52,475 nt of DNA from an uncultured Sandaracinaceae bacterium (GCA_964510015.1 CAZEAA010000004.1:1-52475), one strand, 5' to 3'; positions 9,614 through 29,490 are shown, counted from the stretch's first letter. Made by a program: numbers and translations. Notes: generated by a model not told the origin, from the sequence alone.

Positions 9614-9629
9614 GGCGCGCCGGGGGGCC

Positions 9630-11513: not shown

Positions 11514-11516
11514 CGC

Positions 11517-12554: not shown

Positions 12555-12625
12555 GCGGGAGTGTCGCCTCACGGCGCGCGGGGAGACAACCCCGTCACGC
12601 GGAGTCGGTGCTCGTGGACCTCGAG

Positions 12626-14017
12626 TCAGGGGGTGACGCTGCTCCAGCGGGGGTCGTCGTTCAGCTGCGCCGAGAGAAACGCCGCGAGCCCCGGGGTGGC
12701 CGAGAAGGGCGCCACGGTCAGCGCGCCGTGGCGCTCGCCCACGTAGTAGAAGCTGCGGTGCGCGCCGGTGGTGGGGACACCCTGCACGAAGGCGTTCAGG
12801 TCGATGAGCCCCGCGCGCATGCTGATGCGCACGAATGGGAAGAAGGGGATCAGCTCGCTCGTGAAGTGCGGCGGGTTCCCGAGCGCGTCGAACAGCGAGT
12901 AGAGCCCCATCACCACCTGGTCGCCGTACGCGCACACCATCGCGCTGCGCACCCCGGGATGGAGCGCGTGGATGGAGCGCCAGGTCTCGTGGTTGCCGAA
13001 CTCGGCGCAGCCCGTGCACCACGCGTCGATGGTGTTCTCCAGGGCCCAGCCGCGTCGCACCGCGTCGTGGCTGGCCACCGAGTAGTAGGGGCGCGCCTGC
13101 ACCGGGCCACCGTCGTTGATGAGGTACGGCGACGGCTGGCCGAAGGACTCGAACACCTGCGCGATCTGGTGGTAGTTGCCGAGCGTGCCCACGCCGCCCG
13201 CGCTGAAGCCCGCTATCACCACACGCCCGGCGTGCTCGAAGGTGGGCGCCACGGCGCTGATGGCGTGCTGCACGTTGCGGTAGCCCACCTGCTCGAGCGG
13301 CGCGAAGCCCGCGTACGTGGACAGCTTGTCGGCGAGGTGGAAGTCGAGCGTGCAGTGCGGCAGCACCACGTAGCTGGCGTCACGCAGCGGGTTGTCCGCG
13401 GCGTCGCGGTCGAAGATGCCCGTGTGCCGCTCGCCGTTGCCGTTCCACCACGCGAGCGGGTCGCTGCCCATCGCGTTCAGGATCGCGTCGCGGTGTGGCG
13501 GCAGGTTGCAGCTGATGTCGTCGTAGCAGATGCCCCCACCCATCAGGAACACCACCAAGTCGTCGCTCGCATCGGTGACGTTCACGAACACGCCGCTGTC
13601 GGTGCCGTTGGCGCAGCGCATGCCGTCGATGGGCAGGTAGCGCCAGGTCTCGAGCTCGTCGGCGCTCGTCTCGATGAGCGGTCCGGGCTGGTACCACGCG
13701 GGGGGCGCGGGCAGCGTGGGGCCGAGGTCGGTCGGCCCGCCGAGGTCCGGAGGGCCAGCGTCCATGCCCGCGCCATGGTCCACGCTCGCGCCTTGTTCCG
13801 CGGTGGCCCCGAGGTCCAGGGTCGCCACGGGGTCCGCGTCGGGCAGACCCAAGCTGCCATCCATCTCGATGCCCTGGATCGAGGCATCCCCGCAGCCGAC
13901 GAGCAACAGGCTCGCGACCGCGAGCAGCACCACCACCGCCACCACGGCATGCCAGGGGCAATGCGCGGAGTGCCGAGACCGATGAGAGCCCGAGGTCGTG
14001 ACGCAGGTCGTGTCCAT
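12626..14017 (-). CDS. Pectin-acetylesterase (PAE/Notum)-family lipoprotein esterase (463 aa)
   Basis: Start at MDTTCV (14017). Lipobox LLLVGC. Family motifs FLMGGGICYD and IAGFSAGG (GxSxG nucleophile). The upstream part of track ORF 12626..14605 is antisense to the SDR gene. Confidence 0.7.
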   Translation of the reverse strand: MDTTCVTTSGSHRSRHSAHCPWHAVVAVVVLLAVASLLLVGCGDASIQGIEMDGSLGLPDADPVATLDLGATAEQGASVDHGAGMDAGPPDLGGPTDLGPTLPAPPAWYQPGPLIETSADELETWRYLPIDGMRCANGTDSGVFVNVTDASDDLVVFLMGGGICYDDISCNLPPHRDAILNAMGSDPLAWWNGNGERHTGIFDRDAADNPLRDASYVVLPHCTLDFHLADKLSTYAGFAPLEQVGYRNVQHAISAVAPTFEHAGRVVIAGFSAGGVGTLGNYHQIAQVFESFGQPSPYLINDGGPVQARPYYSVASHDAVRRGWALENTIDAWCTGCAEFGNHETWRSIHALHPGVRSAMVCAYGDQVVMGLYSLFDALGNPPHFTSELIPFFPFVRISMRAGLIDLNAFVQGVPTTGAHRSFYYVGERHGALTVAPFSATPGLAAFLSAQLNDDPRWSSVTP

Positions 14018-14183
14018 GTCCGGCAGGGTCGCGTCATGCGCTGCGCCTCGCCTGTCGCCGCGGGACAAACCCTTGTCATGTGTGGCCAGCTTTCGCGGAC
14101 CCCCGGAAGCAGCTTGGCCAGAAGTGACAACCGCCTGTCCCGTCGCGACAGGCGCGCCCGCCGAGATCAGGCACCCTACGGGC

Positions 14184-15038
14184 ATGACACAGCTCGCAGG
14201 GAAGAAGACGCTGATCACGGGCGCCGGCAGCGGCATCGGCAAGGCGCTGGCGCTGCTGGCCGCCGAGAAGGGCGCGCGGCTGGTCCTGACGGACGTCAAC
14301 GCGGAGAGCTTGAACACGGTGGTGAGCGACGTGCGTGCGCGCGGCGGCGACGTGCTGCTGGCCCGCGCGTTCGACGTCTCCGACCACGACGCCGTGCGCA
14401 GCTTCGCCGACGAGCTCGCTCGCGAGCACGGCAGCGCCGACGTGGTGGTGAACAACGCGGGCATCGCCATCTGGGGCCGCGTGGAGAGCATGTCGCACGC
14501 GGACTGGCGCAAGGTCATCGACGTGAACCTGATGGGGCCCATCCACGTGATCGAGTGCTTCGTTCCGGCCATGATCGCGGCGGGTCGCGGTGGCCACCTC
14601 GTCAACGTGTCGTCGGCCGCCGGGCTCTTCGGGCTGCCTTGGCACGCGGCCTACTCGGCCAGCAAGTTCGGGCTGCGCGGCGTGTCCGAGGTGCTGCGCT
14701 TCGACCTCGAGCGGCACGGCATCAAGGTCAGCCTGGTGTGTCCGGGCGGCGTGAACACGGGCCTCGTCAGCACCGTGAAGGTGGCCGGCGCGGACTCCAG
14801 CAGCCCCGCGTGGGAGAAGCTGCGCACCCGCTTCGCCAAGCACGCCGTCACCCCCGAGCACGCGGCGGCTTGCATCGTGCGCGGTGTGGAGCGAGACCAC
14901 TACATGGTCTACACGTCGGCCGACATCCGCTTGGGGCAGTGGTTCCAGGCCCGTTTCCCCTGGCCCTACGAGCAAGTCATGCGCCGGCTCAACCGTGAGT
15001 TCGACCGCGCGCTCGCTGCGCAGGGTTCGCGGCCGTGA
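14184..15038 (+). CDS. Short-chain dehydrogenase/reductase (284 aa)
   Basis: TGAGSGIGKA cofactor motif, NNAG, catalytic YSASK. Start taken at MTQLAGKKTLITG. Confidence 0.9.
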   Translation: MTQLAGKKTLITGAGSGIGKALALLAAEKGARLVLTDVNAESLNTVVSDVRARGGDVLLARAFDVSDHDAVRSFADELAREHGSADVVVNNAGIAIWGRVESMSHADWRKVIDVNLMGPIHVIECFVPAMIAAGRGGHLVNVSSAAGLFGLPWHAAYSASKFGLRGVSEVLRFDLERHGIKVSLVCPGGVNTGLVSTVKVAGADSSSPAWEKLRTRFAKHAVTPEHAAACIVRGVERDHYMVYTSADIRLGQWFQARFPWPYEQVMRRLNREFDRALAAQGSRP

Positions 15039-15580
15039 GCGCGCGCAAGCCACGCATCGCGCCGGGCAACCTGCGCGACCTGGGTCTCTTCAACGGGGCG
15101 CTCACGCGCGCCCTCGGCGTGGCCAGCGGGGGCCCGCCGCCCAACATCTTCCTCACGCTCGGCCGGCACCGCTCGCTGTTCCGCAAGTGGCTGCTCTTCG
15201 CGGGCGGCCTGATGCCCGGCGGTGAGCTCAAGCGCAGCGAGAGCGAGCTGGTGATCCTGGGCGTGGCCCACACCATGCGCTGCGCCTACGAGTGGGACCA
15301 CCACGAGCGCCTCGCGAAGCGGGCGGGCGTGTCCGAGGAGGCCATCGCGTGCGTGCGCCAGGGGAACTTCGAGGCCGAGTGCTTCACCGCGCGCGAGAAG
15401 GCGTTCCTTCAGGCCTGCCAAGACCTGTACGACCGGCGCGAGATCCTCGAGGACACCTGGCGCGCGCTGGTGGAGCTGGCCACCGAGGTGGAGATCATCG
15501 AGCTGTGCATGCTGGTGGGGCACTACCAGATGCTGGCGATGACGCTGAACACGCTGCGCGTGCCGCTCGACCCGCGCTGA
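15035..15580 (+). CDS. Carboxymuconolactone decarboxylase (AhpD-like) family protein (181 aa)
   Basis: CAYEWDHH motif in an all-helical sequence. GTGA start/stop overlap with the SDR gene. Confidence 0.8.
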   Translation: MSARKPRIAPGNLRDLGLFNGALTRALGVASGGPPPNIFLTLGRHRSLFRKWLLFAGGLMPGGELKRSESELVILGVAHTMRCAYEWDHHERLAKRAGVSEEAIACVRQGNFEAECFTAREKAFLQACQDLYDRREILEDTWRALVELATEVEIIELCMLVGHYQMLAMTLNTLRVPLDPR

Positions 15581-15608
15581 CCGCTCAGCGCGTGATCACG
15601 CGGACTGC

Positions 15609-18062
15609 TCAGCGCGTGACGACGCTGACCGCTCGGCAGGTGCCTTCGGCGTACAAGTTGCCGGCCGAGACGCGGTAGCCCTGGAAGCCCGTCATGAATT
15701 CACCGGTGGCGCACGCAGGCGGCGATGCGCCCCAGCTTCCGATATCGGCTTGGACCGTGCTGCTCGTGCCCACTGTGATGCTGTAGCTGTACTGTTCCCC
15801 TTCGATGAGCAGCGGGGCGCAGTCGAGCCGTCGACCGCCGTTGTGGATACGCGTGACGAAGGTGTTCGCCGGGCAGTCCACGCGGTGCGGCGTGACGCCT
15901 CCCACCGTGCCACCGATGTAGTTCGCGTCGCTCGTATTGCCGCCGGTGGTCACCTGGTAGTCGTACGGAACCGAGCCCACACGCCCGACCACCGCGCGCG
16001 CGCAGCGTGCCGCTCCTCCCTTGGTGCCCTCGCTGGCGCCGCTCGGGATGTACTGGAGCTCGATGCCCACCATCAGCCACCCGGCGGGGCACTGCGACTG
16101 ACGGAGGGTGTCCGCCGGCGACGCCATCAAGAACGTCCGCAGGCTGGCCATCTCGCCGGACGCGATGCTGGCGGCGCAGCCCTCGTCCACGACCCCGTTG
16201 CAGTCCTCATCCCGGTTGCTGCACACCTCGGTCCCGCCCGGATAGCTCGTGGCGAAGTTGTCGTTGCAGTCCGTGGTCGGCAGGCCCCCGACGCAGGTGG
16301 CGTTGACGGGCGCGAACCCGTCCTGGTCCGAGTCCTCGTTCGCGTCCACGCCGCCGCCCGACGAGCAGTTGGAGTCGATGCGGTCACAGCTCTCGGGGGC
16401 GCCCCAGTAGGTGCTCGCCACCGTGTCGTCGCAGTCGTTGCGTGGGAAGCCGCCGGAGCAGGCGAATTGGCTCGGGCTGCGGCCGTCCATGTCGACGTCT
16501 TCGCTGGGCTCCGCGCCGCCGCCCGACGAGCAGTCGTTGTCCAGGCGGTCGCAGCGCTCGTAGGTACCAGGGTACGTGGTGGCGAGCGTGTCCACGCAGT
16601 CGTCCTTCGGCAGCGGCCCGCCACTGCACGCGGCGTCGAGCGCGGCATGCCCGTCCACGTCGAAGTCTTCGTCGGGCTCCACGCCGCCGCCCGAGGAGCA
16701 GTCGTTGTCCACGCGGTCGCACGCCTCCGGGGCTCCGCCGTACATGGTGGCGATGGCGTCGTTGCAGTCGTCCTTCGGGAGCGGCCCTCCGCTGCACGCC
16801 GCGCCGAGCCCCGCGTGACCGTCCAGGTCGCCGTCTTCGTCGGACTCCACGCCGCCGCCCGACGAGCAGTTGTTGTCGAGCCGGTCGCACAGCTCGGTGG
16901 CGCCGAAGAAGATGACGGCGTTGCTGTCCACGCAGTCTCCGTCACGCGCCACGCGCCCCGCCACGGGGACACACGACAGCACGGTGGGCAGGGTGGCGTC
17001 GCCGAACGTGTCGCCGTCGCTGTCCACGTACCAGGGCACGTCCACCGCGCCCTCGTCCACGTTTTCGTCGCAGTCGTTGTCGGCGGCGTCGCAGATCTCC
17101 GGAGCGCCCACGCGCGTGGCGGGGTCGTCATCGTCACAGTCCGTGGCGGTGGCCGCGAAGCCCGCAGCGCCGGGGCAGCTACGCACGCCGGCTGCGCCGA
17201 GCTCGCCGTGTCCATCGTTGTCCGCGTCGGGGTAGAGCGTGATGCTCACGCCCTCGTCCACCGTCTCGTCGCAGTCGTTGTCGACACCATCGCAGACCTC
17301 CGGCGCACCGGGGTTGCGGCCAGAGTTCCCGTCGTCGCAGTCGTCCGCGTTCGAGACCAGGTCCGGCGCGTCGGCACACCCCATGATGGGCGGCGAGGCG
17401 CTGTCGCCTGCGCCATCGTCGTCGAGGTCGGGGTACAGCAAGCGCACCACGTTCTCGTCCATCGATCCGTCACAGTCGTTGTCCACGCCATCGCAGACCT
17501 CGCTCGTGTTCGGGTTGGTGCCGGGAGCGTTGTCGTCACAGTCACGTCCACACGCGTCCTCGCCATCCACCTCGGTCGCGCGGTTGCAGCAGAGCTGGTC
17601 GGGACTGCCGTCCCGGTCTTGGTCGCGAAAGCCGAACGTCCGAGGGTCGCAGTCTTCGTCGTGGTCCAGCGTGTCGCACACCTCGACGTTGCCGGGGAAG
17701 CGCGCCGGGTCCGCGTCGTCGCAGTCGCCGCCACCACACTCGATGGCCAGCACCCCGTCCCCGTCCGCGTCTTCGGTGACGCTGCAGTCGGTCAGGCACA
17801 GGCGGCTCAGCTCCACGCAGGTCTGACCCTCGCGACACGCCCCATTCGGTGGCGCCACACAGCCGCGCGCGTCGGCCAGCGGCGCGCCGGGGGCACACCG
17901 GACGAGGCCCGTGCAGAAGAGCCCGCTGTCGCAGTCGGGGTCGCTGCTGCAGACCGCGCCCGCGTCGTCGGTGACCAGGGTTCCGTCCGACCCGCAGCCC
18001 GAGATGAACGCGAAAACGACGGCCGTGACGGCCAACATGGACGGAGCAGCCCGGAGCGACAT
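15609..18062 (-). CDS. Cys/Asp-rich lipoprotein with MopE-type putative metal-binding repeats and an unassigned C-terminal domain (817 aa)
   Basis: Start at MSLRAAPSMLAVTAVVFAFISGC (lipobox). More than 8 copies of the CDDxxxxxxPGxxExCDGxDNDCDxxxDE-type motif. The rest of track ORF 15609..20003 is antisense to the DltA-like gene. Confidence 0.8.
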   Translation of the reverse strand: MSLRAAPSMLAVTAVVFAFISGCGSDGTLVTDDAGAVCSSDPDCDSGLFCTGLVRCAPGAPLADARGCVAPPNGACREGQTCVELSRLCLTDCSVTEDADGDGVLAIECGGGDCDDADPARFPGNVEVCDTLDHDEDCDPRTFGFRDQDRDGSPDQLCCNRATEVDGEDACGRDCDDNAPGTNPNTSEVCDGVDNDCDGSMDENVVRLLYPDLDDDGAGDSASPPIMGCADAPDLVSNADDCDDGNSGRNPGAPEVCDGVDNDCDETVDEGVSITLYPDADNDGHGELGAAGVRSCPGAAGFAATATDCDDDDPATRVGAPEICDAADNDCDENVDEGAVDVPWYVDSDGDTFGDATLPTVLSCVPVAGRVARDGDCVDSNAVIFFGATELCDRLDNNCSSGGGVESDEDGDLDGHAGLGAACSGGPLPKDDCNDAIATMYGGAPEACDRVDNDCSSGGGVEPDEDFDVDGHAALDAACSGGPLPKDDCVDTLATTYPGTYERCDRLDNDCSSGGGAEPSEDVDMDGRSPSQFACSGGFPRNDCDDTVASTYWGAPESCDRIDSNCSSGGGVDANEDSDQDGFAPVNATCVGGLPTTDCNDNFATSYPGGTEVCSNRDEDCNGVVDEGCAASIASGEMASLRTFLMASPADTLRQSQCPAGWLMVGIELQYIPSGASEGTKGGAARCARAVVGRVGSVPYDYQVTTGGNTSDANYIGGTVGGVTPHRVDCPANTFVTRIHNGGRRLDCAPLLIEGEQYSYSITVGTSSTVQADIGSWGASPPACATGEFMTGFQGYRVSAGNLYAEGTCRAVSVVTR
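16224..16889 (-). repeat. Four tandem 54-57-aa (about 165-170 nt) intragenic repeats
   Basis: Protein residues 392-613 contain four repeat units: CDRLDNNCSSGGGVESDEDGDLDGHAGLGAACSGGPLPKDDCNDAIATMYGGAPEA; CDRVDNDCSSGGGVEPDEDFDVDGHAALDAACSGGPLPKDDCVDTLATTYPGTYER; CDRLDNDCSSGGGAEPSEDVDMDGRS...; CDRIDSNCSSGGGVDANEDSDQDGFA... Confidence 0.8.
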
Positions 18063-18212
18063 GGACGCGAGGATACGCGCGTCCAGAGGCAAAGCGGACG
18101 CTTGACCGCGGGCTGTCGACGACCCCAAGCACCATTTTGCACACCTTGCAGCACCTATGCGCACATGCAAGATTGCAGCCTCACTCCCGCGCTCCCGCAG
18201 GCCGCCGACCCG

Positions 18213-18470
18213 ATGCACGACCCCCAGACCATTCGCCCGCAGCTCAAGCGCTGGCTGCTGGACCACGCCAGCGCGGCGCCGCCAGCGGAGTTCACGGACC
18301 AGCTCCGCATCCTCGAGGTGGGGCTGCTCAACTCGCTCGACATCGTGGAGTTCGTGCTCTTCATCGAGGAGCTGCGCGGCGTGGAGGTGGACACCGACGA
18401 GATCGAGCCCGAGGTCTTCACCAGCATCGACACCCTGTGGGCGGCGTTCTTCGCTCCCCTCTCGGCGTGA
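18213..18470 (+). CDS. DltC-like (D-alanyl-type) carrier protein (85 aa; alternative start 18165 gives 101 aa)
   Basis: In frame with the tail of track ORF 15750..18470. EVGLLNSLDIVEFVLFIEELRGVEVDTDEIEPEVFTSIDTL parallels the DltC phosphopantetheine-site region as I recall it (EEGLLDSFGTVELLLAIENRF...ITEFDRDVWNTPNNI). No clear SD for either start. Confidence 0.7.
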   Translation: MHDPQTIRPQLKRWLLDHASAAPPAEFTDQLRILEVGLLNSLDIVEFVLFIEELRGVEVDTDEIEPEVFTSIDTLWAAFFAPLSA

Positions 18471-18491
18471 GATGCACGAGGTGACCGCGAC

Positions 18492-20204
18492 ATGAGCCAC
18501 GAGCCGACGCTGCGGAGTGGTTTCCTGAGGTCGCTCGCGCGCTTCCCCGAGCGTCCTTGCCTCGCCATCGGCGACGAGACGCTGACCTACGCGGCGCTCG
18601 CGGAGCGGGCCCGGGCCATCGCCGCCACGCTGGACGCGCACACCGACGAGCCCTCCATCCGAGAGGCAGCCGCGGGCCAGCCTCCCAGCCGGCTGACGGC
18701 CGTCTTCGGTCACCGTCACCCCACCGCCTTCGCGGGCCTCCTGGGCGCGCTGCTGCACGGTCATGGCTACGTGCCGCTCAACCCCACGTTCCCGCTGCCG
18801 CGCAGCGCCGCCATGCTGGAGCGCTCGGGCTGCGCCGCGCTGGTGGTGGACGCCACGGCCAGCGCCAAGCTGCCCGAGCTGCTGGAGGGCTTTGCGCGCG
18901 CGCTCGTGGTGCTGGTGCCCGACATGATCGACGCCGCGGAGCTCACCGCGCTGCGCGCCGCGCTGCCCACGCATCGCGTGCTGGGGGCGCTCGACCTCGC
19001 GCCCGCGCGCGACCATGTGCTCGGCGACGCGGCCCCCGACGACGTGGCCTACCTGCTCTTCACCAGCGGCTCCACCGGTCAGCCCAAGGGCGTGATGGTG
19101 GCGCACCGCAACGTGAACGCGTTCATCGACGTCATGGTGGAGCGCTACGCCATCACCGAGCACGACAAGTTCAGCCAGACGTTCGACCTGACCTTCGACC
19201 TGAGCGTGTTCGACACCTTCTGCGCGTGGGAGCGCGGCGCCTGCGTGTGCGTGCCCACCGCGCAGCAGAAGCTCTTCCCCAGCAAGTACCTGAAGCAGCA
19301 CGAGCTGACGGTGTGGTTCAGCGTGCCGTCCACCGGCGTGCTCATGAGCCGCCTGCGCATGCTCAAGCCCAACAGCTACCCGAGCCTGCGCTGGACCCTG
19401 TTCTGCGGGGAGGCACTGCCGTCCGACATCGTCACGCAGTTCGCCGCGGCGGCGCCCGCGTCCGTGGTGGAGAACCTCTACGGCCCGACCGAGCTGACCA
19501 TCGCGTGCACGCTCTATCGCTGGAACGGGGAAGCGTCTTTGGCGGAGTGCGCGCACGGCGTGGTGCCCATCGGCGAGCCCTACCCCGGCATGCGGGTCAT
19601 CGTGGTGGACGAGGCGCTCCAGCCGCTGCCGCGCGGCGAAGCGGGCGAGCTCTTGCTGGCGGGTGCGCAGGTGACGCCGGGCTACTGGCAGGACCCGGAG
19701 CGCACGGCGAAGGCGTTCGTGGTGCCGCCGGGCGAGACCGAGGTGTTCTACCGCACGGGCGACCGCGTGCGCTGGCCCGAGGGTGGCCCGCTGCTGTACC
19801 TCGGACGCGTGGACAACCAGGTGAAGATCCAGGGCTACCGCGTGGAGCTCGGCGAGATCGAGGCCGTGCTGCGCGACCTCGGCCGCACCGAGGTGGCCAT
19901 CGCGATCGGCTGGCCGCTGTCCACGAGCGGCGCGGACGGCGTGGTGGGCTTCGTGCAAGCGCCCGAAGGGGCCACGGACGAAGCGCGCTTGGCATTGAGC
20001 CAACAGCTGGTGGCGGACAGCAAGTCGCGCCTGCCGAGCTACATGCAGCCGTCGCGCGTGGTGCTGGTGGACGAGTGGCCGCTCAACGCCAACGGCAAGG
20101 TGGACCGCGCTGCGCTGCGCGCGGTGGTGGACGCCGAGGCTCTGGCCACGGCACCCCAGAGGCCCGGCGCGAGCGCGAGCACGGGCACGGAAGGCGTCGC
20201 GTGA
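18492..20204 (+). CDS. Stand-alone adenylating enzyme, DltA-like carrier-protein ligase (570 aa)
   Basis: AMP-binding core motifs [58 protein letters not shown]. It has the FCGE variant (TLFCGEALP) and TVWFSVPST, which parallel DltA FMFCGEVLP and NVWTSTPSF as I recall them. No C, T or TE domain. Confidence 0.9.
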   Translation: MSHEPTLRSGFLRSLARFPERPCLAIGDETLTYAALAERARAIAATLDAHTDEPSIREAAAGQPPSRLTAVFGHRHPTAFAGLLGALLHGHGYVPLNPTFPLPRSAAMLERSGCAALVVDATASAKLPELLEGFARALVVLVPDMIDAAELTALRAALPTHRVLGALDLAPARDHVLGDAAPDDVAYLLFTSGSTGQPKGVMVAHRNVNAFIDVMVERYAITEHDKFSQTFDLTFDLSVFDTFCAWERGACVCVPTAQQKLFPSKYLKQHELTVWFSVPSTGVLMSRLRMLKPNSYPSLRWTLFCGEALPSDIVTQFAAAAPASVVENLYGPTELTIACTLYRWNGEASLAECAHGVVPIGEPYPGMRVIVVDEALQPLPRGEAGELLLAGAQVTPGYWQDPERTAKAFVVPPGETEVFYRTGDRVRWPEGGPLLYLGRVDNQVKIQGYRVELGEIEAVLRDLGRTEVAIAIGWPLSTSGADGVVGFVQAPEGATDEARLALSQQLVADSKSRLPSYMQPSRVVLVDEWPLNANGKVDRAALRAVVDAEALATAPQRPGASASTGTEGVA

Positions 20205-21055
20205 ACAAGCGCTGGGTCATCAAGAAGGCCGCGCGCGGGGCGGTCACCTTCGGGTCACTGGCCAGCGGCGCGCTCGCGCTGCGCGGGGCCCTCGCGCGGG
20301 GTCCACGGGTGCGCGGGCTGACGTACCACCGCGTGGGCGACGACGCGCCGCAGGACCCCTTCTGCGTGACGCGCAGCGCCTTCGACGCGCAGATGCGGCT
20401 GCTGGCCGAGGAGGGCCGCGCGGTGTCGCTCGAGCAGGTGCAGCGCTTCGTGGCGGGGCGCGAAGACCTGCCCGATGGGGCGTGCCTCGTGACCATCGAC
20501 GACGGCTGCCTCAGCACGCTGACCGAGGTGCTGCCCACCCTGCGCCGCTGGGGCGTGCCGGCCGTGGCGTTCGTGAGCGCGTCCATCGTGGGCGGCGACT
20601 ACGAGGGCCTGCCCGAGCGATTCCTCACGTGGGACGAGCTGCGCACGCTGGACGAGAGCCCGCTCATCACCATCGGCTCGCACGCGCACACGCACCGCTC
20701 GCTGGGGCTCATGTCGGTGGACGACGCGCGCCACGAAGCGCTGCGCTCGCGCGAGACGCTCGAACGTGAGCTCGGCCACGAGGTGCGCTGCTTCGCCTAC
20801 CCGTTCGGCACGCGCGCGGACTTCAACCCAGTCACCGAGCGGGTGCTCGCGGACGCGGGCTACCACGTGGCGTTCAACTCCATGCACGGCACCATCCAGA
20901 AGGGCATGGATCCCATCAGCCTGCCGCGCGTGAAGATCGAGGGCGGTGAGCCGCTCGCCATGTTCGCGCTGCAGAGCCGCGGCGCCCTCGACGCGTGGCG
21001 CGTGGTGGACCAGAACCTCTACCGCTTGCAGCGCGTGCGCCGGGAGATCACGTGA
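20201..21055 (+). CDS. Polysaccharide deacetylase, NodB-homology domain (284 aa)
   Basis: GTG at 20201 overlaps the upstream stop (GTGA). Motifs VTIDDG, GSHAHTH, CFAYPFG. In frame with the tail of track ORF 18557..21055. Confidence 0.85.
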   Translation: MNKRWVIKKAARGAVTFGSLASGALALRGALARGPRVRGLTYHRVGDDAPQDPFCVTRSAFDAQMRLLAEEGRAVSLEQVQRFVAGREDLPDGACLVTIDDGCLSTLTEVLPTLRRWGVPAVAFVSASIVGGDYEGLPERFLTWDELRTLDESPLITIGSHAHTHRSLGLMSVDDARHEALRSRETLERELGHEVRCFAYPFGTRADFNPVTERVLADAGYHVAFNSMHGTIQKGMDPISLPRVKIEGGEPLAMFALQSRGALDAWRVVDQNLYRLQRVRREIT

Positions 21056-22215
21056 TCTTCCTGGCCAGCGCAGCGCTGGGCGTCACGGGCACGCTCGCCA
21101 CCCTGCCGGGGACGCTCGAGCTGGGCATGCTGACCGTGGGCTCGCTGCTGGGCCAGCCACGCCGGCTCGGCGACGCGCGTGAGTGCGGGAAGCTCGCCGT
21201 GATCGTGCCGGCCCACAACGAGGCCGGCGGCATAGAGCGCTGCGTTCTGAGCTTGCTCACGTGCGCGCAGCCCCCGAGCGGCGCGCGCGTCATCGTGGTG
21301 GCCGACAACTGCAGCGACGACACGGCAGCCCGCGCGCGCGCGGCGGGTGCCGAGGTGCTGGAGCGCACCGACACCGTCCGCCGCGGCAAGGGCTTCGCGC
21401 TCGAGTACGGCTTCGAGCACGCGCTGCGCGACCCGAGCGTGGACGCCTGCCTGGTGGTGGACGCCGACACCACGGTGCAGCCCGACTTCCTGGTGGCCAT
21501 GGCCGCAGCCTTCGCGGGTGGCGCCGACGGGGTGCAGTGCCGCTACCTGGTGAGCAACGCCGACGAGCACCGCCTGCGCAACGTGGCGCTGCTGGCCTTC
21601 AACGTGGCGCGCCCCCGTGCACGTGAGCGCTTCGGGCTGTCGGTGGGCATCCTGGGCAACGGCTTCGGCCTGCATCGCCGCGTGCTCGAGGCCCTGCCCT
21701 ACACGGCGCGCTCGGTGGTGGAGGACCTCGAGTACCACGTCATGATGGTGCGCGCGGGCTTTGCCGTGCGCTTCGTGGAGCAGACCGCCGTGAGCGCCGC
21801 CGTGCCCACCACGGAGGCCGCCGAGACCACGCAGCGCGCGCGCTGGGAGGGAGGCCGCCTGCGCATGCTGCGCGAGCTGGCGCCGAGCCTGTGCGCCGAC
21901 GTGCTGCGCGGGCACGGACGCAGCGTGGAGCCGCTGGGTGAGCTGCTGCTGCTGCCGCTGGCGTCGCACGTGGGCATCCTCGCGCTGGTGCTGGTGGTGC
22001 CCTTCCCGCCCACGCAGCTGTACGCCGCGGGTGCCCTCGGCCTCGTGGGCGCGCACGTGCTGAGCAGCCTGCTGACCAGCGGCGCCACGCGCAGCGACTG
22101 GGTGGCCCTCGGCACGGCCCCCTTCTACGTGGCGCGCAAGCTCGCGCTCATGCCCGCCATCCTGCGGGCCTCGAAGACGGAACAGGAGTGGGTGCGCACC
22201 GCCCGCCCCAGCTGA
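21052..22215 (+). CDS. Processive-type family-2 glycosyltransferase with C-terminal membrane domain (387 aa)
   Basis: GTG at 21052 overlaps the upstream stop (GTGA). Motifs AVIVPAHNE, VVADNCSDDT, VVDADT, VEDLEY, QRARW (QxxRW). Hydrophobic N-terminal and C-terminal segments. Confidence 0.85.
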   Translation: MIFLASAALGVTGTLATLPGTLELGMLTVGSLLGQPRRLGDARECGKLAVIVPAHNEAGGIERCVLSLLTCAQPPSGARVIVVADNCSDDTAARARAAGAEVLERTDTVRRGKGFALEYGFEHALRDPSVDACLVVDADTTVQPDFLVAMAAAFAGGADGVQCRYLVSNADEHRLRNVALLAFNVARPRARERFGLSVGILGNGFGLHRRVLEALPYTARSVVEDLEYHVMMVRAGFAVRFVEQTAVSAAVPTTEAAETTQRARWEGGRLRMLRELAPSLCADVLRGHGRSVEPLGELLLLPLASHVGILALVLVVPFPPTQLYAAGALGLVGAHVLSSLLTSGATRSDWVALGTAPFYVARKLALMPAILRASKTEQEWVRTARPS

Positions 22216-22237
22216 GGTCTGCGGTGGAGAGAAGACC

Positions 22238-23275
22238 ATGTTGATGCGAAGCACCGAGACCCCTCCACTGCGCTCGAGCCGCCTCCCCGGCGTGCGCGTG
22301 GTGGGCTCCCTGTGCCTGCTCACCCTCGTGGCGGGCACGAGCCAGTGCAGCCGCCGCCCCGCCGACGAACCCAGCCACGAAGTCAGCAGCGATCCCGGCC
22401 GCGAAGTCAGCAGCGACGTCAGCAACGACGTCCGCAACGACGCCACCACCACCGCGCCGCGCGACACGCAGCCTCCCGGTGAGCTGCCGAACCCCCGGGC
22501 GCCGCTCACGAGCGCCAACGTCTTCTTCCTCGGGCACAGCCTGCAGGGCTGGCATGCGGCCGCGATGATCGCGAACTTCAGCGCGCACGCGGGCGTCACC
22601 TACCGCTACAAGTCCGCCATCGGCAACGGGGCCAACCTGATGTGGCAGTGGGACCACCCCACCACGGCCGAGGGGCACAACCCGCGCACCACGCTCGGCG
22701 CCGAGCCCTTCGACGTGCTGGTCATGACCGAGGCGATCCCACTCGCCACCCACGTGCAGTGGTCCGACAGCGTGGCCAACGCGGGCCGCTTCCTCGCGCT
22801 CGCGTACGCGCAGAACCCAAACGTTCAGGCCTATCTCTACGAGACCTGGCACTCGCGGAACGTGAGCGACTGGCGTGGGCAGCTCGACAGCGACCGCGCG
22901 CTCTGGATGTCCATCGTGAACGGCGTGAACGCCGCGCACCCCGGTCGCGACATGCTCCTGATCCCCGGTGGGCGGGCCATGGCCGCGCTGGTCGACCGCA
23001 TCGAGGCCGGCGGCGTGCCGGGCATCTCGAGCGTGGACGCGCTCTTCGTGGACGACATCCACCTGAGCGACACCGGCTGGTACTTCATCGCCATGGTGCA
23101 GTACGCCACCATCCTGCGGCGGTCCCCGGTGGGCCTGCCGGCCGCCACCACCAATCGCTTCGGCGTGGCCATCCCACCGCCTCCCGCCAGCGCGGTGCCC
23201 GTCATGCAAGCGATCGCGTGGCAGGTCGTGCTCGGCGATCCCTCGGCTGGTGTGGCCGCCACAGACGCGCCATGA
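22238..23275 (+). CDS. Exported SGNH/GDSL-like hydrolase or transferase candidate (345 aa)
   Basis: GGAGAGAAG lies 5 nt upstream of the ATG. N-terminal signal/anchor followed by a low-complexity linker. Block I-like FFLGHSL and block V-like DDIHLSDTGWYFIA. Paralog of 41041..42027. Confidence 0.6.
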   Translation: MLMRSTETPPLRSSRLPGVRVVGSLCLLTLVAGTSQCSRRPADEPSHEVSSDPGREVSSDVSNDVRNDATTTAPRDTQPPGELPNPRAPLTSANVFFLGHSLQGWHAAAMIANFSAHAGVTYRYKSAIGNGANLMWQWDHPTTAEGHNPRTTLGAEPFDVLVMTEAIPLATHVQWSDSVANAGRFLALAYAQNPNVQAYLYETWHSRNVSDWRGQLDSDRALWMSIVNGVNAAHPGRDMLLIPGGRAMAALVDRIEAGGVPGISSVDALFVDDIHLSDTGWYFIAMVQYATILRRSPVGLPAATTNRFGVAIPPPPASAVPVMQAIAWQVVLGDPSAGVAATDAP

Positions 23276-23285
23276 ACGCTCGCCC

Positions 23286-24488
23286 ATGACGCGCTCGGTC
23301 CCACTCGATCGCCGCTACCTGCTGGTGATGCCGATCCCCTACTACGTCGACGACTTCGGCGCGGTGTGGGTGGATCGTCTGTGGAAGCACGATCTCGAGC
23401 GGCACCTCGACTACCTGCCGCAGCTCACGCTGACGGCGCCGTGCGCAACGCTCGGCGCCGAGAAGGACATGGTCCGCTTCGACCCACCGGCGGGCATGAC
23501 GCTGATCCCGCTGCCCCACACCACGTCCATGACGAGCGCCGTGCTGGGGCTGCCCACCACCGCGCTGCGGCTCTTCCGCGCGGTGAAGGCCAACGAGATC
23601 GTCCACTCGGGCGCGGTCGGGTGGCCGTATCCCATCGGCTGGCTGGCCAACCTGTTCGCGAGCCTCCTGCGCAAGCCGCTGGTGGTGGTGGTGGAGAGCG
23701 CGCCGTGGCGCTCCACGGGGGAAGACGACTCGTGGAAGCGACGCCTCCGCAAGGTGGTCTACGAGCGGCTCGCGCGCTGGTCGTGTCGCCGCGCGACGGT
23801 GGCGTTCTTCACGCAGCCGGCCTACCGCGAGTCGCTCTTCGGTGGTCGCGGCACCGCCTACGTCACGCCGGCCACCTGGATGAACGCCGACGACATCGTC
23901 TCCGAAGCAGCCGCGCAGACCCGCTGGCAGGAGCGCGTGCGCGAGCCCGTGCGGCTGCTCTTCGCGGGCCGCCTGGACGCCGACAAGGGCGTGCGCGTGC
24001 TGCTGGACGCCGTCCGCGCGAGCGACGCCAAGGGCCAGGCCGTCGCGCTCGACATCATCGGCTCGGGCCCGCTGCGCGACGTGTGCGAGCAGGCCGCACG
24101 CGAGCTGCGCACGGCCACGATCCGAATGCTGGATCCCGTGCCCTACGGCGCTCCGTTCTTCGCGCTGGTGGACAGCTACCACGCCGTGGTGGTCCCGAGC
24201 GTGACCGACGAGCAGCCGCGCATCCTCTTCGACGCACACGCGCGCGCCGTGCCGATCATCGCCTCGGGCACGGACGGACTGCGGCCCCACGTCGTCGAAG
24301 GCGAGCGCGAATTCCTGGTGACCCCGGGCGACGTGCGCTCCCTACAGGCCGCTCTCGAGCGCGCCACGGCGCGTCCCGAAGAGCTGCGTGACAACGGCCT
24401 CGCGGGGCGGCGGAACGTGCTCGGTCTCACGCACCAAGCCATGCACGAGAATCGGTCGGACATCTTGCGGCGCCACTTCGGGGCCTAG
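23286..24488 (+). CDS. GT-B fold (family 4-like) glycosyltransferase (400 aa)
   Basis: Start at MTRSVPLDRRY. C-terminal Rossmann half: LLFAGRLDADKGV..VVVPSVTDEQPRILFDAHARAVPIIAS..VTPGD. Confidence 0.8.
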   Translation: MTRSVPLDRRYLLVMPIPYYVDDFGAVWVDRLWKHDLERHLDYLPQLTLTAPCATLGAEKDMVRFDPPAGMTLIPLPHTTSMTSAVLGLPTTALRLFRAVKANEIVHSGAVGWPYPIGWLANLFASLLRKPLVVVVESAPWRSTGEDDSWKRRLRKVVYERLARWSCRRATVAFFTQPAYRESLFGGRGTAYVTPATWMNADDIVSEAAAQTRWQERVREPVRLLFAGRLDADKGVRVLLDAVRASDAKGQAVALDIIGSGPLRDVCEQAARELRTATIRMLDPVPYGAPFFALVDSYHAVVVPSVTDEQPRILFDAHARAVPIIASGTDGLRPHVVEGEREFLVTPGDVRSLQAALERATARPEELRDNGLAGRRNVLGLTHQAMHENRSDILRRHFGA

Positions 24489-24528
24489 ATCCGAGCGCCC
24501 GGGCAATCCCTTCCATCGCAGAATCGCA

Positions 24529-24592
24529 CTTGTTCCAAGGCATTTGGCCACCCCGGCTCGAGAACCGGGGTGGCCAAACCCCTTGAAACAAG
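24529..24592. terminator. Long GC-rich hairpin between convergent genes (bidirectional terminator candidate)
   Basis: Perfect 14-bp stem TTTGGCCACCCCGG (24543-56) / CCGGGGTGGCCAAA (24565-78) with an 8-nt loop. The stem extends after a 2-nt bulge by 11 of 12 further pairs (24529-40 with 24581-92). No U-tract on either side. Confidence 0.5.
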
Positions 24593-24653
24593 CACCGTTC
24601 CAACCCGAGAGGGCCCACCAAGCCCGAGGTTCGTTACCGTCAACCCAGCGCCC

Positions 24654-26300
24654 CTACCGCTGCCGCGCGAACACCACCACCTCGCGCGGCGCGAACGGCA
24701 GCCACGCCCCCGTCGTCCGGCGAGCGATCACCCGCGCGCCCTCCGGCGCCGCATACGCGACCGCGAACGGCGCCGCCGCGCGGTCCGCCAGCGCGTTCGT
24801 CCGCGGCGCGCCCGCGAACATCTCGGCGTGCTGCTGCTGGTAGTTGTCGTACTCGAAGCCCGCCTCGATCGGCACGTCGGGCTGGCTGCGCTGGTGCGCC
24901 TCGGCGAGCGCCCACACCGCGCGCTGCCCCGCGAGGTAGTCGTGCGTGGCCGCGGCGCTGAAGAGCGCGACGAGCAGCACCCACGCGAACGCAGGGCCTA
25001 GCAGCCGACGCGAGACCACAGGGACGTCCCGGAGCAGGAGCAACCCGGGGACGAGCGGCACCATGAAGAGCGCGTAGCGGTCGAAGTGCGCCCCGTAAGC
25101 CAGGGCGAACGGCGCGAAGCCGATCACCATCAGCGCCAGCAGAAAGAGGGCGTGCACCGACCGCGGCCCGCTACGGAAGTCGCGAGCCGCTCGTCCGAGC
25201 GCGTCGCCCACCAGCGCCGCCAGGGCACCGGCGCCCAGCGAGGCGAGCACCGTGATGACGAGCAGGACCGCCGCGGGGAGCGCCGGCGGAGCACCCGGCA
25301 GCGTGCGCGGGCCCACGGCGAGCCCCAGCCAGATGTTGCCCACGTCCTCGCGCGGGAAGCGCACGCCCAGCACCAGCAGCCCTCCCGCGAACAGCACACC
25401 CATCCCGAGCGCCGCCAGCAGCACCCCCCGATGCGTGCGCGCGCGGGCAGCCAGCAGCACCAGCAGCAGCGGCAGCAGCGAGAGCCCGAGGTGCAGGAAG
25501 AGGAAGCCGGTGCGCTCGAGGGGCAGCCGCAGCACCCCCAGGTGCAGGTGCGCGAGGTCCAGCAGCGCCTCCCGCAGGCCCGCGTCGCGCGTGTCGTAGA
25601 GCGCGGGCAGCCCGAGGTGGCGGTCGATCCACGCGCGGCTCAGCGGCAGCGACGCGCCCACGATCAGCAGCGGCGGCAACACGCGCAGCAGCGTGGACCG
25701 ACGGAGGCCCCAGCGAGCCGAGCCCGCGACGGCGAACGCCAGCGGCAAGATCAAGCCGACCTGCCGCACGAGCGTGGCCAGCACCGCGAGCAGCGTGCCC
25801 ACCACCAGCGGCGTCGTGCGCCCGCTGTCGAGCGCGCGCATCAGGCAGAGCGAGCTCGCGAGCAGCAGCGTCACGAACGGCACGTCGGTCATGAAGGTGT
25901 GCGACAGCGCCACGTAGACCGGCTGCGCCAACAAGCAGCTCGCGCCGAGCAGCGCCACGGGGGCGGCGACACCGCGCTCACGAAGCAGCCGGAACGCGAG
26001 GCCGACGCCGAGCCCTCCCAGGACCAGCGTGGAGACCCGCAGCGCCGTGAAGGAGAAGCCGAAGGGCAAGCAGAAGAGCGCCCCCCACCCCAGTTGCGGC
26101 AACAGCGGCATGCTCTGCCAGAAGGTCAACCGCAGGTCGCCCTGCTCGACCCAGCTCTTCACCGGCAGCGAGTAGGCCCAGTCGTCGTTGAGCGGCAGCT
26201 CGGCCACCGGGTTCGCGATCAGCGCCACCAGCACCCACGCTACGGACAGCGAGACGCTGGCCGCGCGGTCGGACAGGGGGCGGTCGAGGAGTGCCTGCAT
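24654..26300 (-). CDS. Polytopic membrane protein, GT-C (family 39/83-like) glycosyltransferase candidate (548 aa)
   Basis: Start at MQALLDRPL. First-loop motif LNDDWAYSLP, more than 10 hydrophobic segments, and a soluble C-terminal domain. Confidence 0.6.
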   Translation of the reverse strand: MQALLDRPLSDRAASVSLSVAWVLVALIANPVAELPLNDDWAYSLPVKSWVEQGDLRLTFWQSMPLLPQLGWGALFCLPFGFSFTALRVSTLVLGGLGVGLAFRLLRERGVAAPVALLGASCLLAQPVYVALSHTFMTDVPFVTLLLASSLCLMRALDSGRTTPLVVGTLLAVLATLVRQVGLILPLAFAVAGSARWGLRRSTLLRVLPPLLIVGASLPLSRAWIDRHLGLPALYDTRDAGLREALLDLAHLHLGVLRLPLERTGFLFLHLGLSLLPLLLVLLAARARTHRGVLLAALGMGVLFAGGLLVLGVRFPREDVGNIWLGLAVGPRTLPGAPPALPAAVLLVITVLASLGAGALAALVGDALGRAARDFRSGPRSVHALFLLALMVIGFAPFALAYGAHFDRYALFMVPLVPGLLLLRDVPVVSRRLLGPAFAWVLLVALFSAAATHDYLAGQRAVWALAEAHQRSQPDVPIEAGFEYDNYQQQHAEMFAGAPRTNALADRAAAPFAVAYAAPEGARVIARRTTGAWLPFAPREVVVFARQR

Positions 26301-28369: not shown

Positions 28370-28491
28370 GATGGGTCACCCTTAGCCCGTCCCACTCGGA
28401 CGGTGTGTTCCCAGTGTAAGTCGAGGTCGGACGAGATATCAAACTGTGCGTGGCTGGCCCACCTGCTTCGCGTCTGTCAGCCTGCGCCGCG

Positions 28492-29490
28492 ATGTCGGCC
28501 GTTCTGCTGCAACGCGTGGGTGTCGTGGCCATCGGGCGCAACGAAGGGGCGCGGTTGCAGCGCTGTCTCCGCTCGCTGCCGAGCGGCCTCGCGCGCGTGG
28601 TCTACGTGGACTCGGGCTCCACGGACGGCAGCGTCCCGTTCGCCCGCGAGGCCTCCGCCGAGGTGGTGGCGCTCGACATGAGCACGCCCTTCACGGCGGC
28701 GCGCGCGCGCAACGCGGGCTGGCAGCGGCTCGTGGCGCTCGAGCCGGGCGTGACGTTCGTGCAGTTCCTCGACGGGGACTGCGAGCTGGACACCGGCTTC
28801 TTGCCCGCGGCCATGGCGGTGCTCGACGCGGAGCCGGAGGTGGCCGTGGTGTGCGGTCGTCGCCGCGAGGTGGCCCCCGCGGACTCGGTGTTCAACCGGC
28901 TGTGCGACATGGAGTGGAACACGCCGGTGGGAGACGCCGCGGCGTGCGGGGGCGACGCGTTGATGCGCGTGTCCGCGCTGCGGGCCGTGGGGGGCTACGA
29001 CCCGACCCTGATCGCAGGAGAAGAGCCCGAGCTGTGCCTGCGCTTGCGGCGCGCGGGGCACCGCATCCGCCGCATCGACGCCGAGATGACCCGCCACGAC
29101 GCCGCCATCGAGCGCTGGTCGCAGTGGTGGCTGCGCAACGCGCGCGCGGGCCACGCGTACGCCGAAGGCTTCCATCGCTACGGCCGCGAACCGGAGCAGC
29201 TCTACCGCCGCGAGGTCGCGTCGAACGCGGTGTGGGGCATGGGCTTGCCGGCGCTCAGCCTGGGGCTCGCGCTGCCCACGCTGGGGGGCAGCCTCTCCCT
29301 GTTGGGGCTGTATGGCGTGCTCTACCGGCGCATCCGCGCGGACCGCCTGTCGCGCGGAGACAGCCCCGAGGACGCCACGCTCTACGCCACCTACACGGTG
29401 CTCGGGAAGGTGCCGCAGGCGCGCGGTGCCGTGCAGTTCTACGCGCGCTTGCTGCGCCGCGAGCAGGCCTCGCTCATCGAGTACAAGTGA
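28492..29490 (+). CDS. Family-2 glycosyltransferase with C-terminal membrane segment (332 aa)
   Basis: Start at MSAVLLQRVGVVAIGRNEG. Motifs VDSGSTDGS, FLDGDC, AGEEPELCLRLRRAGHRI. Confidence 0.8.
   Translation: MSAVLLQRVGVVAIGRNEGARLQRCLRSLPSGLARVVYVDSGSTDGSVPFAREASAEVVALDMSTPFTAARARNAGWQRLVALEPGVTFVQFLDGDCELDTGFLPAAMAVLDAEPEVAVVCGRRREVAPADSVFNRLCDMEWNTPVGDAAACGGDALMRVSALRAVGGYDPTLIAGEEPELCLRLRRAGHRIRRIDAEMTRHDAAIERWSQWWLRNARAGHAYAEGFHRYGREPEQLYRREVASNAVWGMGLPALSLGLALPTLGGSLSLLGLYGVLYRRIRADRLSRGDSPEDATLYATYTVLGKVPQARGAVQFYARLLRREQASLIEYK

Follow-up and report, generated by a model that had tools for sequence, protein, structure and literature searches.

In a 52,475-nucleotide stretch of DNA from an uncultured Sandaracinaceae bacterium (GCA_964510015.1, CAZEAA010000004.1:1-52475; hereafter the window, meaning the whole stretch analysed), the gene of a small carrier protein and that of a stand-alone adenylating enzyme, the ligase, open a run of six genes at positions 18213-24488. 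Judging from gene order in related genomes, carrier and ligase belong to a cassette of exopolysaccharide loci that is widespread and seems not to have been described before; its ancestral order is a tandem-GNAT protein designated X, an AurF-type oxygenase, the carrier, the ligase and usually then a deacetylase of carbohydrate esterase family 4 (CE4). We propose, with a probability of roughly 0.45, that this is a cytoplasmic amino-acid tailoring cassette which decorates a polysaccharide building block before export. A first-pass annotation made from the sequence alone had treated the six genes as a hard-wired unit, built around a pair akin to DltA and DltC and acting on a polymer made by a synthase. 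The six open reading frames (ORFs) are indeed present on the plus strand, with gaps of 21, -4, -4, 22 and 10 nt and GTGA at both -4 overlaps, but their tight packing is a property of this genome, and outside its two closest Polyangiales relatives (L165 and L166) the only recurrent neighbour of the pair among them is the deacetylase. The partners that are conserved, X and the AurF-type protein, are encoded at 7561-9613, and they were missed before because in this genome they lie 8.6 kb upstream of the carrier.

The cassette was delineated by comparison of about 170 related loci (numbered with the prefix L), 160 of which come from genomes and metagenomes and had all window proteins mapped onto them; the ligase is represented by more than 120 database clusters at 58-100% identity. 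Families were assigned with the Pfam and NCBIfam models, structures were compared by sequence searches of the PDB and by AF2 models with Foldseek, and nine neighbourhoods, including those of Sandaracinus amylolyticus, one Pseudomonadales metagenome-assembled genome (MAG) and one Burkholderiales MAG, were annotated with Pfam. Loci were sorted into two arrangements by the position of the carrier gene; a split by identity alone (at least 54%) mixed both, and L094, L095, L097, L007, L101, L108 and L008 were reassigned to type II after this sorting. Type I thus denotes loci with a ligase roughly 54-85% identical to that of the window, and its counts exclude the reassigned loci and cover only loci with enough flanking sequence.

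In type I the order is X, AurF-type gene, carrier, ligase and often CE4, with a gene for a 2-oxoglutarate (2OG)-dependent Fe(II) oxygenase on the minus strand in front of X. The carrier is present in 20 of 20 loci, the AurF-type gene in 16 of 16, X in about 12 of 14 and CE4 in about 10 of 17. The AurF-type gene directly precedes the carrier in all 16 loci, and X lies directly upstream of the AurF-carrier-ligase group in about 12 of the 14. The genes for the AurF-type protein, carrier and ligase often abut or overlap (in L168 at 8864-9730, 9730-9996 and 10001 onward). The order from X to the ligase was encountered in Sandaracinus, Pseudomonadales, Burkholderiales, Steroidobacteraceae, Myxococcota MAGs and many metagenome contigs. 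S. amylolyticus, where the X homologue is I5071_47580, and the Pseudomonadales and Burkholderiales MAGs encode an uncharacterised protein of about 370 amino acids, an AurF-type protein, an 87-residue carrier and the ligase, and near these three cassettes are found a large polyketide synthase (PKS), a glycosyltransferase of family 4 (GT4), AlgX/GDSL proteins, and Wzx/Wzy or an exosortase.

The window departs from this order by a block of 8.6 kb (9630-18212) between the AurF-type gene and the carrier, which is absent from that position in L165, L166, L085 and all other type I loci and is therefore regarded as a lineage-specific insertion that split the cassette. L165 and L166, with 74-85% identity to the window proteins, have the order 2OG oxygenase, X, AurF-type protein, a small ABM gene, carrier, ligase, CE4, a family 2 glycosyltransferase (GT2), an 803-residue oxidoreductase/epimerase, an EpsU-like GT2 and the SGNH protein, and L166 has one further ORF of 299 residues between the AurF-type gene and the carrier region. 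The ABM-type monooxygenase gene (L165 9103-9435 and L166 3418-3756, both on the minus strand) occupies the place between AurF-type gene and carrier at which the window has its block. X and the AurF-like protein are 83-85% identical to their orthologues in both relatives, and both are intact in the window.

No Pfam, NCBIfam or PDB sequence match was obtained for X, and among the best 120 of the 388 homologues detected every named one is called 'hypothetical'. Its AF2 model (pLDDT 94, pTM 0.90) retrieved only N-myristoyltransferases (NMTs) or Eis-like GNATs among the top 50 Foldseek matches (E about 1e-10, probability 1.00, TM 0.45-0.54), and on the basis of this model we are confident that X consists of two GNAT-fold domains in one chain and is NMT-like. 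The AurF-like protein is too remote for a PDB sequence match, and its membership in the family is given by PF11583. Its putative ligands E90, E121xxH124, E169 and H195xxxE199xxH202 are conserved in at least 17 of 18 orthologues, and the pattern E, ExxH, E, HxxxExxH is the three-histidine, four-carboxylate pattern of the AurF structure. It probably serves as an N-oxygenase, with the amino acid on the carrier as its substrate. For neither X nor the AurF-like protein, nor for the ligase or the CE4 protein, was a transmembrane segment predicted. Orthologues of the 2OG oxygenase lie beside X in L085, L165, L166, L006 and L099. In the window the 5' ends of the ORFs for this oxygenase and for X overlap by 59 nt; a codon further downstream is probably the true start of the oxygenase gene.

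The ligase has the AMP-binding plus AMP-binding_C architecture and passes the model for amino-acid adenylation domains (TIGR01733, 343.4 bits with a cut-off of 317.4). The DltA kinship proposed for it did not survive comparison with the family models, to which it scored 266.5 and 272.7 bits against cut-offs of 559.85 (TIGR01734) and 476 (NF003417), and identity to Bacillus subtilis DltA, the sequence of which was verified against 3E7W, is 29%. The highest scores in the PDB search were obtained with adenylation domains of nonribosomal peptide synthetases (NRPSs), namely LgrA; the stand-alone matches were 8K4R, the VinM-VinL complex (328 bits, E 1.4e-96), 6AKD (268 bits) and 4OXI (249 bits), the latter two of which we take to be IdnL7 and AlmE, followed by DltA with at most 203 bits. 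The enzyme therefore does not cluster with DltA, an outcome that the first-pass annotation had named as refuting its own reading, but groups with generic NRPS-type adenylation domains and with VinM, IdnL7 and AlmE. TIGR03098, the exosortase A (PEP-CTERM) system-associated acyl-CoA ligase, gave 211 bits against a cut-off of 592.

The likeness of its pocket to that of DltA is nevertheless real. The ten specificity positions, anchored on motifs and compared with DltA and LgrA module 2, read DLFFLCLIAK in the ligase and DLMTMCTVAK in B. subtilis DltA, so that D, L, C, A and K are common to both and positions 278 (F/T) and 322 (L/T) differ. The cysteine singled out before (C305, in the CGE motif) is present and invariant, but it is not diagnostic of DltA because the glycine module of LgrA has the same residue. 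All code residues are invariant in 19 of 19 aligned diverse homologues, the alignment from which the statistics for position 239 were also taken, as are D236 of the FDLS motif, the aspartate that binds the alpha-amino group, and the catalytic K536; the motifs WFSVPS, LFCGE and NLYGPTELTIA are retained in most of about 100 loci. Since VinM, IdnL7, AlmE, LgrA module 2 and DltA, the closest solved relatives, activate Ala or Gly, we infer that the substrate is a small alpha-amino acid of the Gly or Ala class.

The carrier likewise resembles type II peptidyl carrier proteins such as PltL, rather than DltC as had been suggested. No DltC model matched it at E<=0.01 and no DltC chain in the PDB at E<=1; its best PDB match is PltL (6.5e-6), an aminoacyl carrier (4H2S) follows with 7.6e-4, and NCBIfam models of acyl carrier proteins matched weakly. 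The Pfam scan gave no PF00550 match for the window carrier; the carrier of type II loci passes this model. The serine in GLLNSLD, within the pattern G(I/L)L(S/N)SLD, is invariant in 21 orthologues.

The third gene encodes a CE4 deacetylase, as claimed, with 64 bits to PF01522 (Polysacc_deac_1; cut-off 23.1) and the motifs TIDDG, HAHTH and AYPFG; the model of the PgaB N-terminal domain scored 88.8 bits, below its cut-off, and the HfsH model scored weakly (34.7 bits). An N-terminal RWxVKKAAR...LGS segment is conserved and is unlike a typical signal peptide. The CE4 gene often overlaps the ligase gene, with shared stop and start codons, and the pairing recurs in many genomes. Because a stand-alone ligase and a carrier sit in a polysaccharide locus and this pairing recurs, the idea put forward before, that an amino sugar is de-N-acetylated and then aminoacylated from a carrier, is a reasonable core that we retain without the kinship to Dlt.

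The same logic is seen in a second, independent arrangement. In type II, represented by 51 loci (L007-L023 and L094-L163, e.g., L129, L131 and L113), with relatives of this kind from Acidobacteriota and Actinomycetota MAGs, the ligase, which has the same pocket motifs, comes first and the carrier follows directly. An NMT-like GNAT (PF00583 and PF01233) and/or a hexapeptide acyltransferase is encoded after the carrier in 28 of the 33 loci with enough flank, and an FkbH-like HAD protein, a second acyl carrier protein and a CE4-like protein of 594 residues recur. X and the type II GNAT of 334 residues show no direct sequence similarity and are linked only at the level of the fold and of the Pfam NMT family.

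The coordinates and family matches of the cassette, of the remaining genes of the run and of the surrounding locus are collected in Table 1.

Table 1 Features of the window discussed in the text (aa, amino acids; percentages are identities)
Feature	Position	Strand	Remarks
2OG-Fe(II) oxygenase, divergent from X	6618-7619	-	PF13640 66.8 bits
X, tandem-GNAT (N-myristoyltransferase-like) protein	7561-8706	+	381 aa; candidate acyl/aminoacyl transferase
AurF-family diiron oxygenase	8717-9613	+	PF11583 158 bits, cut-off 29.6
Inserted 8.6-kb block	9630-18212	.	multi-transmembrane 627-aa protein, AraC-type regulator, pectinacetylesterase-like protein, SDR, CMD, MopE-repeat lipoprotein
Carrier	18213-18470	+	85 aa
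Ligase (adenylating enzyme)	18492-20204	+	570 aa
CE4 deacetylase	20201-21055	+	284 aa
EpsU-like GT2	21052-22215	+	387 aa
Exported SGNH-fold protein	22238-23275	+	345 aa
GT4	23286-24488	+	400 aa; PF13692 (Glyco_trans_1_4) and PF00534 (Glycos_transf_1)
GT2 (w22)	28450-29490	+	PF00535; matches of 44-53% in L006, L009, L089, L099, L165, L166
Alg13/Alg14-like split glycosyltransferase pair	30564-31579	-	PF04101 and PF08660; same pair near carrier and ligase in L001, L167, L169
Wzz/PCP-type chain-length protein	31582-33636	-	PF02706
F-A(LLM)-PCP protein	33647-38320	-	1557 aa; PF00551/PF02911, PF00501 (twice), PF00296, PF00550
Wza-type export protein	38336-39379	-	PF02563 and SLBB domains
Initiating polyprenyl-phosphate hexose-1-phosphate transferase (PHPT, Bac_transf)	39554-41026	+	PF02397 218 bits, PF13727
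Second exported SGNH-like protein	40951-42027	+	34% over 276 aa to 22238-23275, E 2e-43
Type I PKS	42030-48656	+	2208 aa; KS(Cys)-AT-KR-DH-carrier(GGHSL)-TE
GT2 overlapping PKS stop codon	48653-49600	+	PF00535; matches in L088, L089, L091, L006, L164

The fold and domain classes given before for the members of the run (adenylating enzyme, CE4, GT2, exported SGNH protein and GT4) were borne out by the family scans and by AF2 and Foldseek. The last three, the EpsU-like GT2, the SGNH protein and the GT4, are on comparative grounds ordinary, lineage-specific members of the surrounding polysaccharide locus. The GT2 (PF13641 and PF13632; best named model EpsU with 242.7 bits, cut-off 700) does carry the D, DxD, ED and QxxRW motifs described for it (D89-D90, D137AD139, E224-D225 and Q261RARW265) together with hydrophobic segments at residues 1-19 and 294-341; these motifs are the whole basis for calling it processive. 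It was found near the ligase in L165 and L166 only, and its GTGA junction with the CE4 gene is, by this comparison, a derived feature of this genome. The SGNH protein matched no Pfam or NCBIfam family, and a sequence search of the PDB yielded no usable match for it; its AF2 core has a pLDDT above 95, and the best Foldseek matches are DUF4886 (4i8i), GDSL lipases, PatB and CE2/CE3 esterases (E 8.6e-9 to 1e-4). S101 in the GHSL motif, G131 and D272xxH275 are invariant among the homologues, and the block III asparagine was not identified. The homologues are free-standing secreted proteins, many of them fused to T9SS sorting modules (Bacteroidota) or RTX modules. A role as an analogue of DltD finds no support, as no DltD entry is among the 50 best Foldseek matches and the protein co-occurs with the carrier pair in L165 and L166 only. 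A paralogue with a hydrophobic segment at residues 35-57 is encoded directly upstream of the PKS, and its true start probably lies nearer to 41040. For the GT4, an orthologue of 50% identity lies upstream of the cassette in L085; elsewhere only weak GT4 matches were found. The sequence GAGG, resembling a ribosome-binding site, precedes the ligase gene, and GGAG precedes that of the SGNH protein.

The window has about 71% G+C, and the nearest matches of its proteins are from Polyangiales and Sandaracinaceae MAGs. Its gene content is that of a single large polysaccharide locus, in which a GT-C enzyme of the PMT_2 type and further GT2s complete the set of glycosyltransferases. As it contains an initiating PHPT, a Wza-type export protein and a Wzz/PCP-type chain-length protein, the locus looks lipid-linked and Wzx/Wzy-like rather than dependent on a synthase only, as had been assumed. 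The F-A(LLM)-PCP protein, an NRPS-like megaprotein, consists of a formyltransferase-like domain, an adenylation domain split by a luciferase-like monooxygenase of the MupA/Atu3671 type (TIGR04020, 485 bits) and a peptidyl carrier domain. The same architecture (at 1-2616 in L167 and 35-4717 in L169), a protein of 675-725 residues, Alg14/13 and an epimerase precede carrier, ligase and CE4 in these two loci; the 675-725-residue protein, which has no Pfam match, lies between the F-A(LLM)-PCP and Alg14 genes in the position taken by Wzz in the window. The PKS has an unusual domain order without a loading module, with TACSTS and HGTGT in the KS and GHSVG in the AT domain. Its orthologues (44-55% identity) occur in L001, L002/3, L005, L089 and L091 and lie within 10 kb of the cassette in 5 of 10 loci with full flanks, and the PKS and the GT2 behind it recur near the cassette in several phyla.

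Some further features of the window are recorded for completeness. Within the inserted block, where the AraC label was given from the translated sequence only, the first gene (9630-11513, plus strand) starts 16 nt after the AurF-like gene and encodes a protein of 627 residues with about 10-12 hydrophobic segments and no Pfam or NCBIfam match. It might be a polymerase resembling Wzy or some other membrane enzyme. As a candidate for the missing membrane step it was rejected, since none of the related loci has it and it therefore lies outside the conserved system. At the other end of the block, divergent from the carrier and separated from it by 129 nt, a MopE-repeat lipoprotein-like protein is encoded (15609-18083, minus strand) that has nine Cys-rich copies of PF11617 (220 bits). 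A TonB-dependent receptor gene (560-2602, minus strand), also found in L165 (1-332), forms the edge of the syntenic region in both and would be relevant if the cassette product binds metal. The ORF at 2612-4786 on the minus strand matches no family and was rejected as a gene; at its place in L165 the opposite strand encodes a histidine kinase (HAMP/HATPase_c) and then a response regulator, and the ORF is probably the shadow, due to high G+C, of a histidine kinase gene on the plus strand. An Rfam scan of the whole window gave zero matches, and a scan of 17900-24800 for promoters and terminators gave nothing exceeding shuffled sequences.

From the gene content, synteny, fold classes and active-site motifs observed we derive a proposal that covers substrate and acceptor, the sequence of the steps and the topology of the pathway. 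The ligase would activate a small alpha-amino acid of the Gly/Ala class and thioesterify it to the phosphopantetheine arm of the carrier. The AurF-like enzyme would then N-oxygenate the carrier-tethered amino acid, as HamC and PvfB do with NRPS-bound valine, while the CE4 protein would de-N-acetylate an amino sugar in a precursor that is linked to a nucleotide or a lipid. X would pass the aminoacyl group, modified or not, from the carrier to the freed amine, the glycosyltransferases of the locus would extend the decorated unit, and machinery of the Wza/Wzz type would finish and export the polymer. All carrier-dependent steps in this scheme are cytoplasmic, and therefore no DltB-like channel is required. 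The absence of DltB from the run, noted previously, is correct: MBOAT/DltB and DltD models matched none of the window proteins scanned against Pfam and NCBIfam, and neither MBOAT nor DltD proteins were found in the nine Pfam-annotated neighbourhoods. The membrane-crossing step that had been postulated to make up for it is not needed if transfer is cytoplasmic, as in AlmEFG; a missing DltB need not imply that such a step is still to be found. A more specific version, in which AurF-type enzyme and tandem GNAT together give a polysaccharide with N-hydroxylated (hydroxamate-forming) or further N-oxidised aminoacyl groups on an amino sugar, is speculative and rather unlikely. If it were true, there would be an exopolysaccharide with built-in siderophore-like or redox-active side groups and, with the PKS and the F-A(monooxygenase)-PCP protein included, a widespread class of NRPS/PKS-tailored glycans in Myxococcota, Gammaproteobacteria and Burkholderiales, with the sister arrangement in Acidobacteriota and Actinomycetota MAGs.

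Several points weigh against the proposal of a cytoplasmic tailoring cassette. X is absent from some type I loci (L006, L091 and L099) and CE4 from about 40% of them, and AurF-type protein and X were not seen upstream in L167 and L169. The likeness of the modelled X to GNATs is one of fold only (TM about 0.5, about 10% identity), and X might take its acyl group from an acyl-CoA and not from the carrier. Assignment to the AurF family is no proof of N-oxygenation on a tethered substrate, nor can the substrate of the ligase be read from its pocket code. The N-terminus of the CE4 protein is mildly hydrophobic and ends in ALA, and if it is a signal or anchor it could place the enzyme outside the cytoplasm. 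Neither Wzx nor Wzy was recognised within the window.

The KS-first PKS that co-occurs with the cassette may moreover be the real consumer of the aminoacyl-carrier. In that case the aminoacyl or N-oxygenated aminoacyl group would serve as starter, one or a few malonate units would be added and processed by KR and DH, and an amino-polyketide acyl group, released or transferred by the TE, would end up on the polysaccharide as substituent or lipid anchor, with X and CE4 possibly still serving to attach it. A PKS with an active-site cysteine in its KS and no loading domain needs an external starter, its own carrier domain has a GGHSL motif of the peptidyl carrier type, and the PKS shares the locus with the cassette in the window and lies less than 10 kb from it in half of the full-flank loci. 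It is, however, 22 kb away in the window and not within 10 kb in L085, L165, L006 and L099, and a PKS of this kind is missing from type II loci, where acyltransferases and FkbH-like proteins are encoded. We regard this route as unlikely. The same cassette could also yield a diffusible N-oxygenated metabolite of the signal or siderophore type (valdiazen, pyrazine N-oxides, hydroxamates), the exopolysaccharide genes being merely co-located. The pvf and ham pathways have AurF-like protein, adenylation domain and carrier as their core, AurF-type enzymes have been implicated in the formation of the lipothrenin hydroxamates, and a TonB-dependent receptor is encoded in the window and in the syntenic L165. 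This we consider improbable, as the cassette lies among genes for glycosyltransferases, Wzz/Wza, Wzy, an exosortase or sugar-nucleotide enzymes in every sampled phylum, includes a CE4 polysaccharide deacetylase with often overlapping stop and start codons, and has a carrier unaccompanied by a reductase or condensation domain for release.

The remaining two explanations concern the ligase and the route of its product. VinM and IdnL7 add L-Ala to an amine on an acyl carrier protein. With 328 and 268 bits they are the best stand-alone structural relatives of the ligase, which might correspondingly join the amino acid to an amine on a carrier-tethered substrate, or directly to the sugar amine, rather than to the carrier thiol. 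The core cassette, however, comprises one carrier and one ligase and nothing else that could pre-load the carrier, the genes of the two stand side by side in either arrangement, and the catalytic K536 and the alpha-amino-binding aspartate are kept as in ordinary thiolating adenylation domains; an amide ligase of this type is thus very improbable. Least credible of all, and hardly tenable, is the Dlt-like route of the first-pass annotation, according to which the aminoacyl group is carried across the membrane and a polymer made by the synthase and partly deacetylated is then esterified by the exported SGNH protein, acting as an analogue of DltD. The tight packing of the six genes in this genome, the confirmed SGNH fold, the DltA-like pocket motifs including the cysteine, and the AlgX/GDSL-type proteins near the cassette in L002 and L004 are all compatible with it. 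It conflicts with the failure of ligase and carrier to match the DltA and DltC models, the lack of MBOAT proteins in the window and the nine annotated neighbourhoods, the restriction of the SGNH family and the GT2 as companions of the pair to L165 and L166, the free-standing secreted nature of the SGNH homologues with their T9SS and RTX modules and the absence of DltD from the top 50 fold matches, and the finding that the partners which are conserved, GNAT and hexapeptide transferases, are soluble.

To our knowledge, two systems of carrier-protein-dependent aminoacylation of cell-surface polymers have been described, Dlt and AlmEFG, both of which matter for surface charge and for resistance to antimicrobial peptides. 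With DltABCD, which D-alanylates teichoic acids, the cassette shares a stand-alone adenylating enzyme, a small carrier, the pocket residues D, L, C, A and K and a surface glycopolymer as target; it differs in the 29% identity and sub-cut-off scores of the ligase, in a carrier that is not DltC, in the lack of DltB and in an SGNH protein that is not a conserved partner. Transfer is here probably cytoplasmic and directed to nitrogen, in contrast to the extracytoplasmic O-esterification by Dlt. Closer in logic is the AlmEFG system of Vibrio cholerae for the glycine modification of lipid A, in which AlmE loads AlmF and AlmG transfers the residue to the glycolipid without a DltB (PMC4278540). Ligase, carrier and dedicated transferase are common to both, and AlmE (4OXI) outscores DltA in comparison with the window ligase (249 vs 203 bits). 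AlmG is a membrane acyltransferase of the LpxL type that forms an ester on lipid A. The cassette, by contrast, has a soluble tandem GNAT as its candidate transferase and includes two further enzymes, the AurF-type oxygenase and the CE4 deacetylase; its target would be a polysaccharide precursor.

The loading and oxidation half of the cassette has its counterparts in small-molecule pathways. HamC, an AurF-type enzyme, oxidises NRPS-tethered L-Val, and PvfB acts likewise on a tethered amino acid (PMC11659414); LitN, another AurF-type enzyme, has been implicated in hydroxamate formation (PMC10616846). In PvfB/PvfC and HamC/HamD, as here, an AurF-family enzyme with the same ligand pattern is encoded beside an adenylation domain and a carrier, but these pathways release diffusible diazeniumdiolates or pyrazine N-oxides by means of a reductase domain, whereas the cassette has a free-standing carrier, a pocket for a smaller residue and a polysaccharide context. 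VinM/VinL and IdnL7, which protect the starter units of macrolactams and activate L-Ala or Gly-type substrates, provide the closest solved stand-alone relatives of the ligase and likewise use a small discrete carrier; their pathways, however, are those of polyketide macrolactams, without a polysaccharide context, and the amide that they form is on an amine bound to an acyl carrier protein. The other half resembles pathways in which a sugar N-acetyl group is removed and the amine re-acylated, as by NodB/NodA/NodF, LpxC/LpxD, MshB/MshC/MshD and HfsH/HfsK. The acyl donor is an acyl carrier protein in NodA/NodF and LpxD, MshD is a tandem GNAT, and HfsH and HfsK modify the holdfast polysaccharide. 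We know of none among these pathways that has an adenylating enzyme and a carrier of the peptidyl type for an amino acid, or an N-oxygenase. The ligase of TIGR03098, a computationally defined family inside exopolysaccharide loci, has been described together with an acyl carrier protein, and L004 has an exosortase gene beside the cassette; that family is annotated as acyl-CoA ligase, in contrast to the amino-acid adenylation domain of the window.

The individual parts of the cassette are thus of known kinds, and it is their combination and its wide spread in exopolysaccharide loci that appear to be undescribed; no description of the cassette was found in the full-text open-access literature, although absence there is no proof of novelty. 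If the proposed mechanism holds, amino-acid-derived and possibly N-oxidised substituents of environmental exopolysaccharides would become predictable from sequence, a function would be assigned to a 'hypothetical' family, that of X, with at least 388 homologues, and a concrete enzymatic route would be at hand in S. amylolyticus, of which a complete genome with the cassette is available. Beside Dlt and AlmEFG the cassette represents a third and far more widespread logic, in which an NRPS-type loading pair is combined with an N-oxygenase, a GNAT and a sugar deacetylase in the exopolysaccharide loci of several phyla and in two arrangements.

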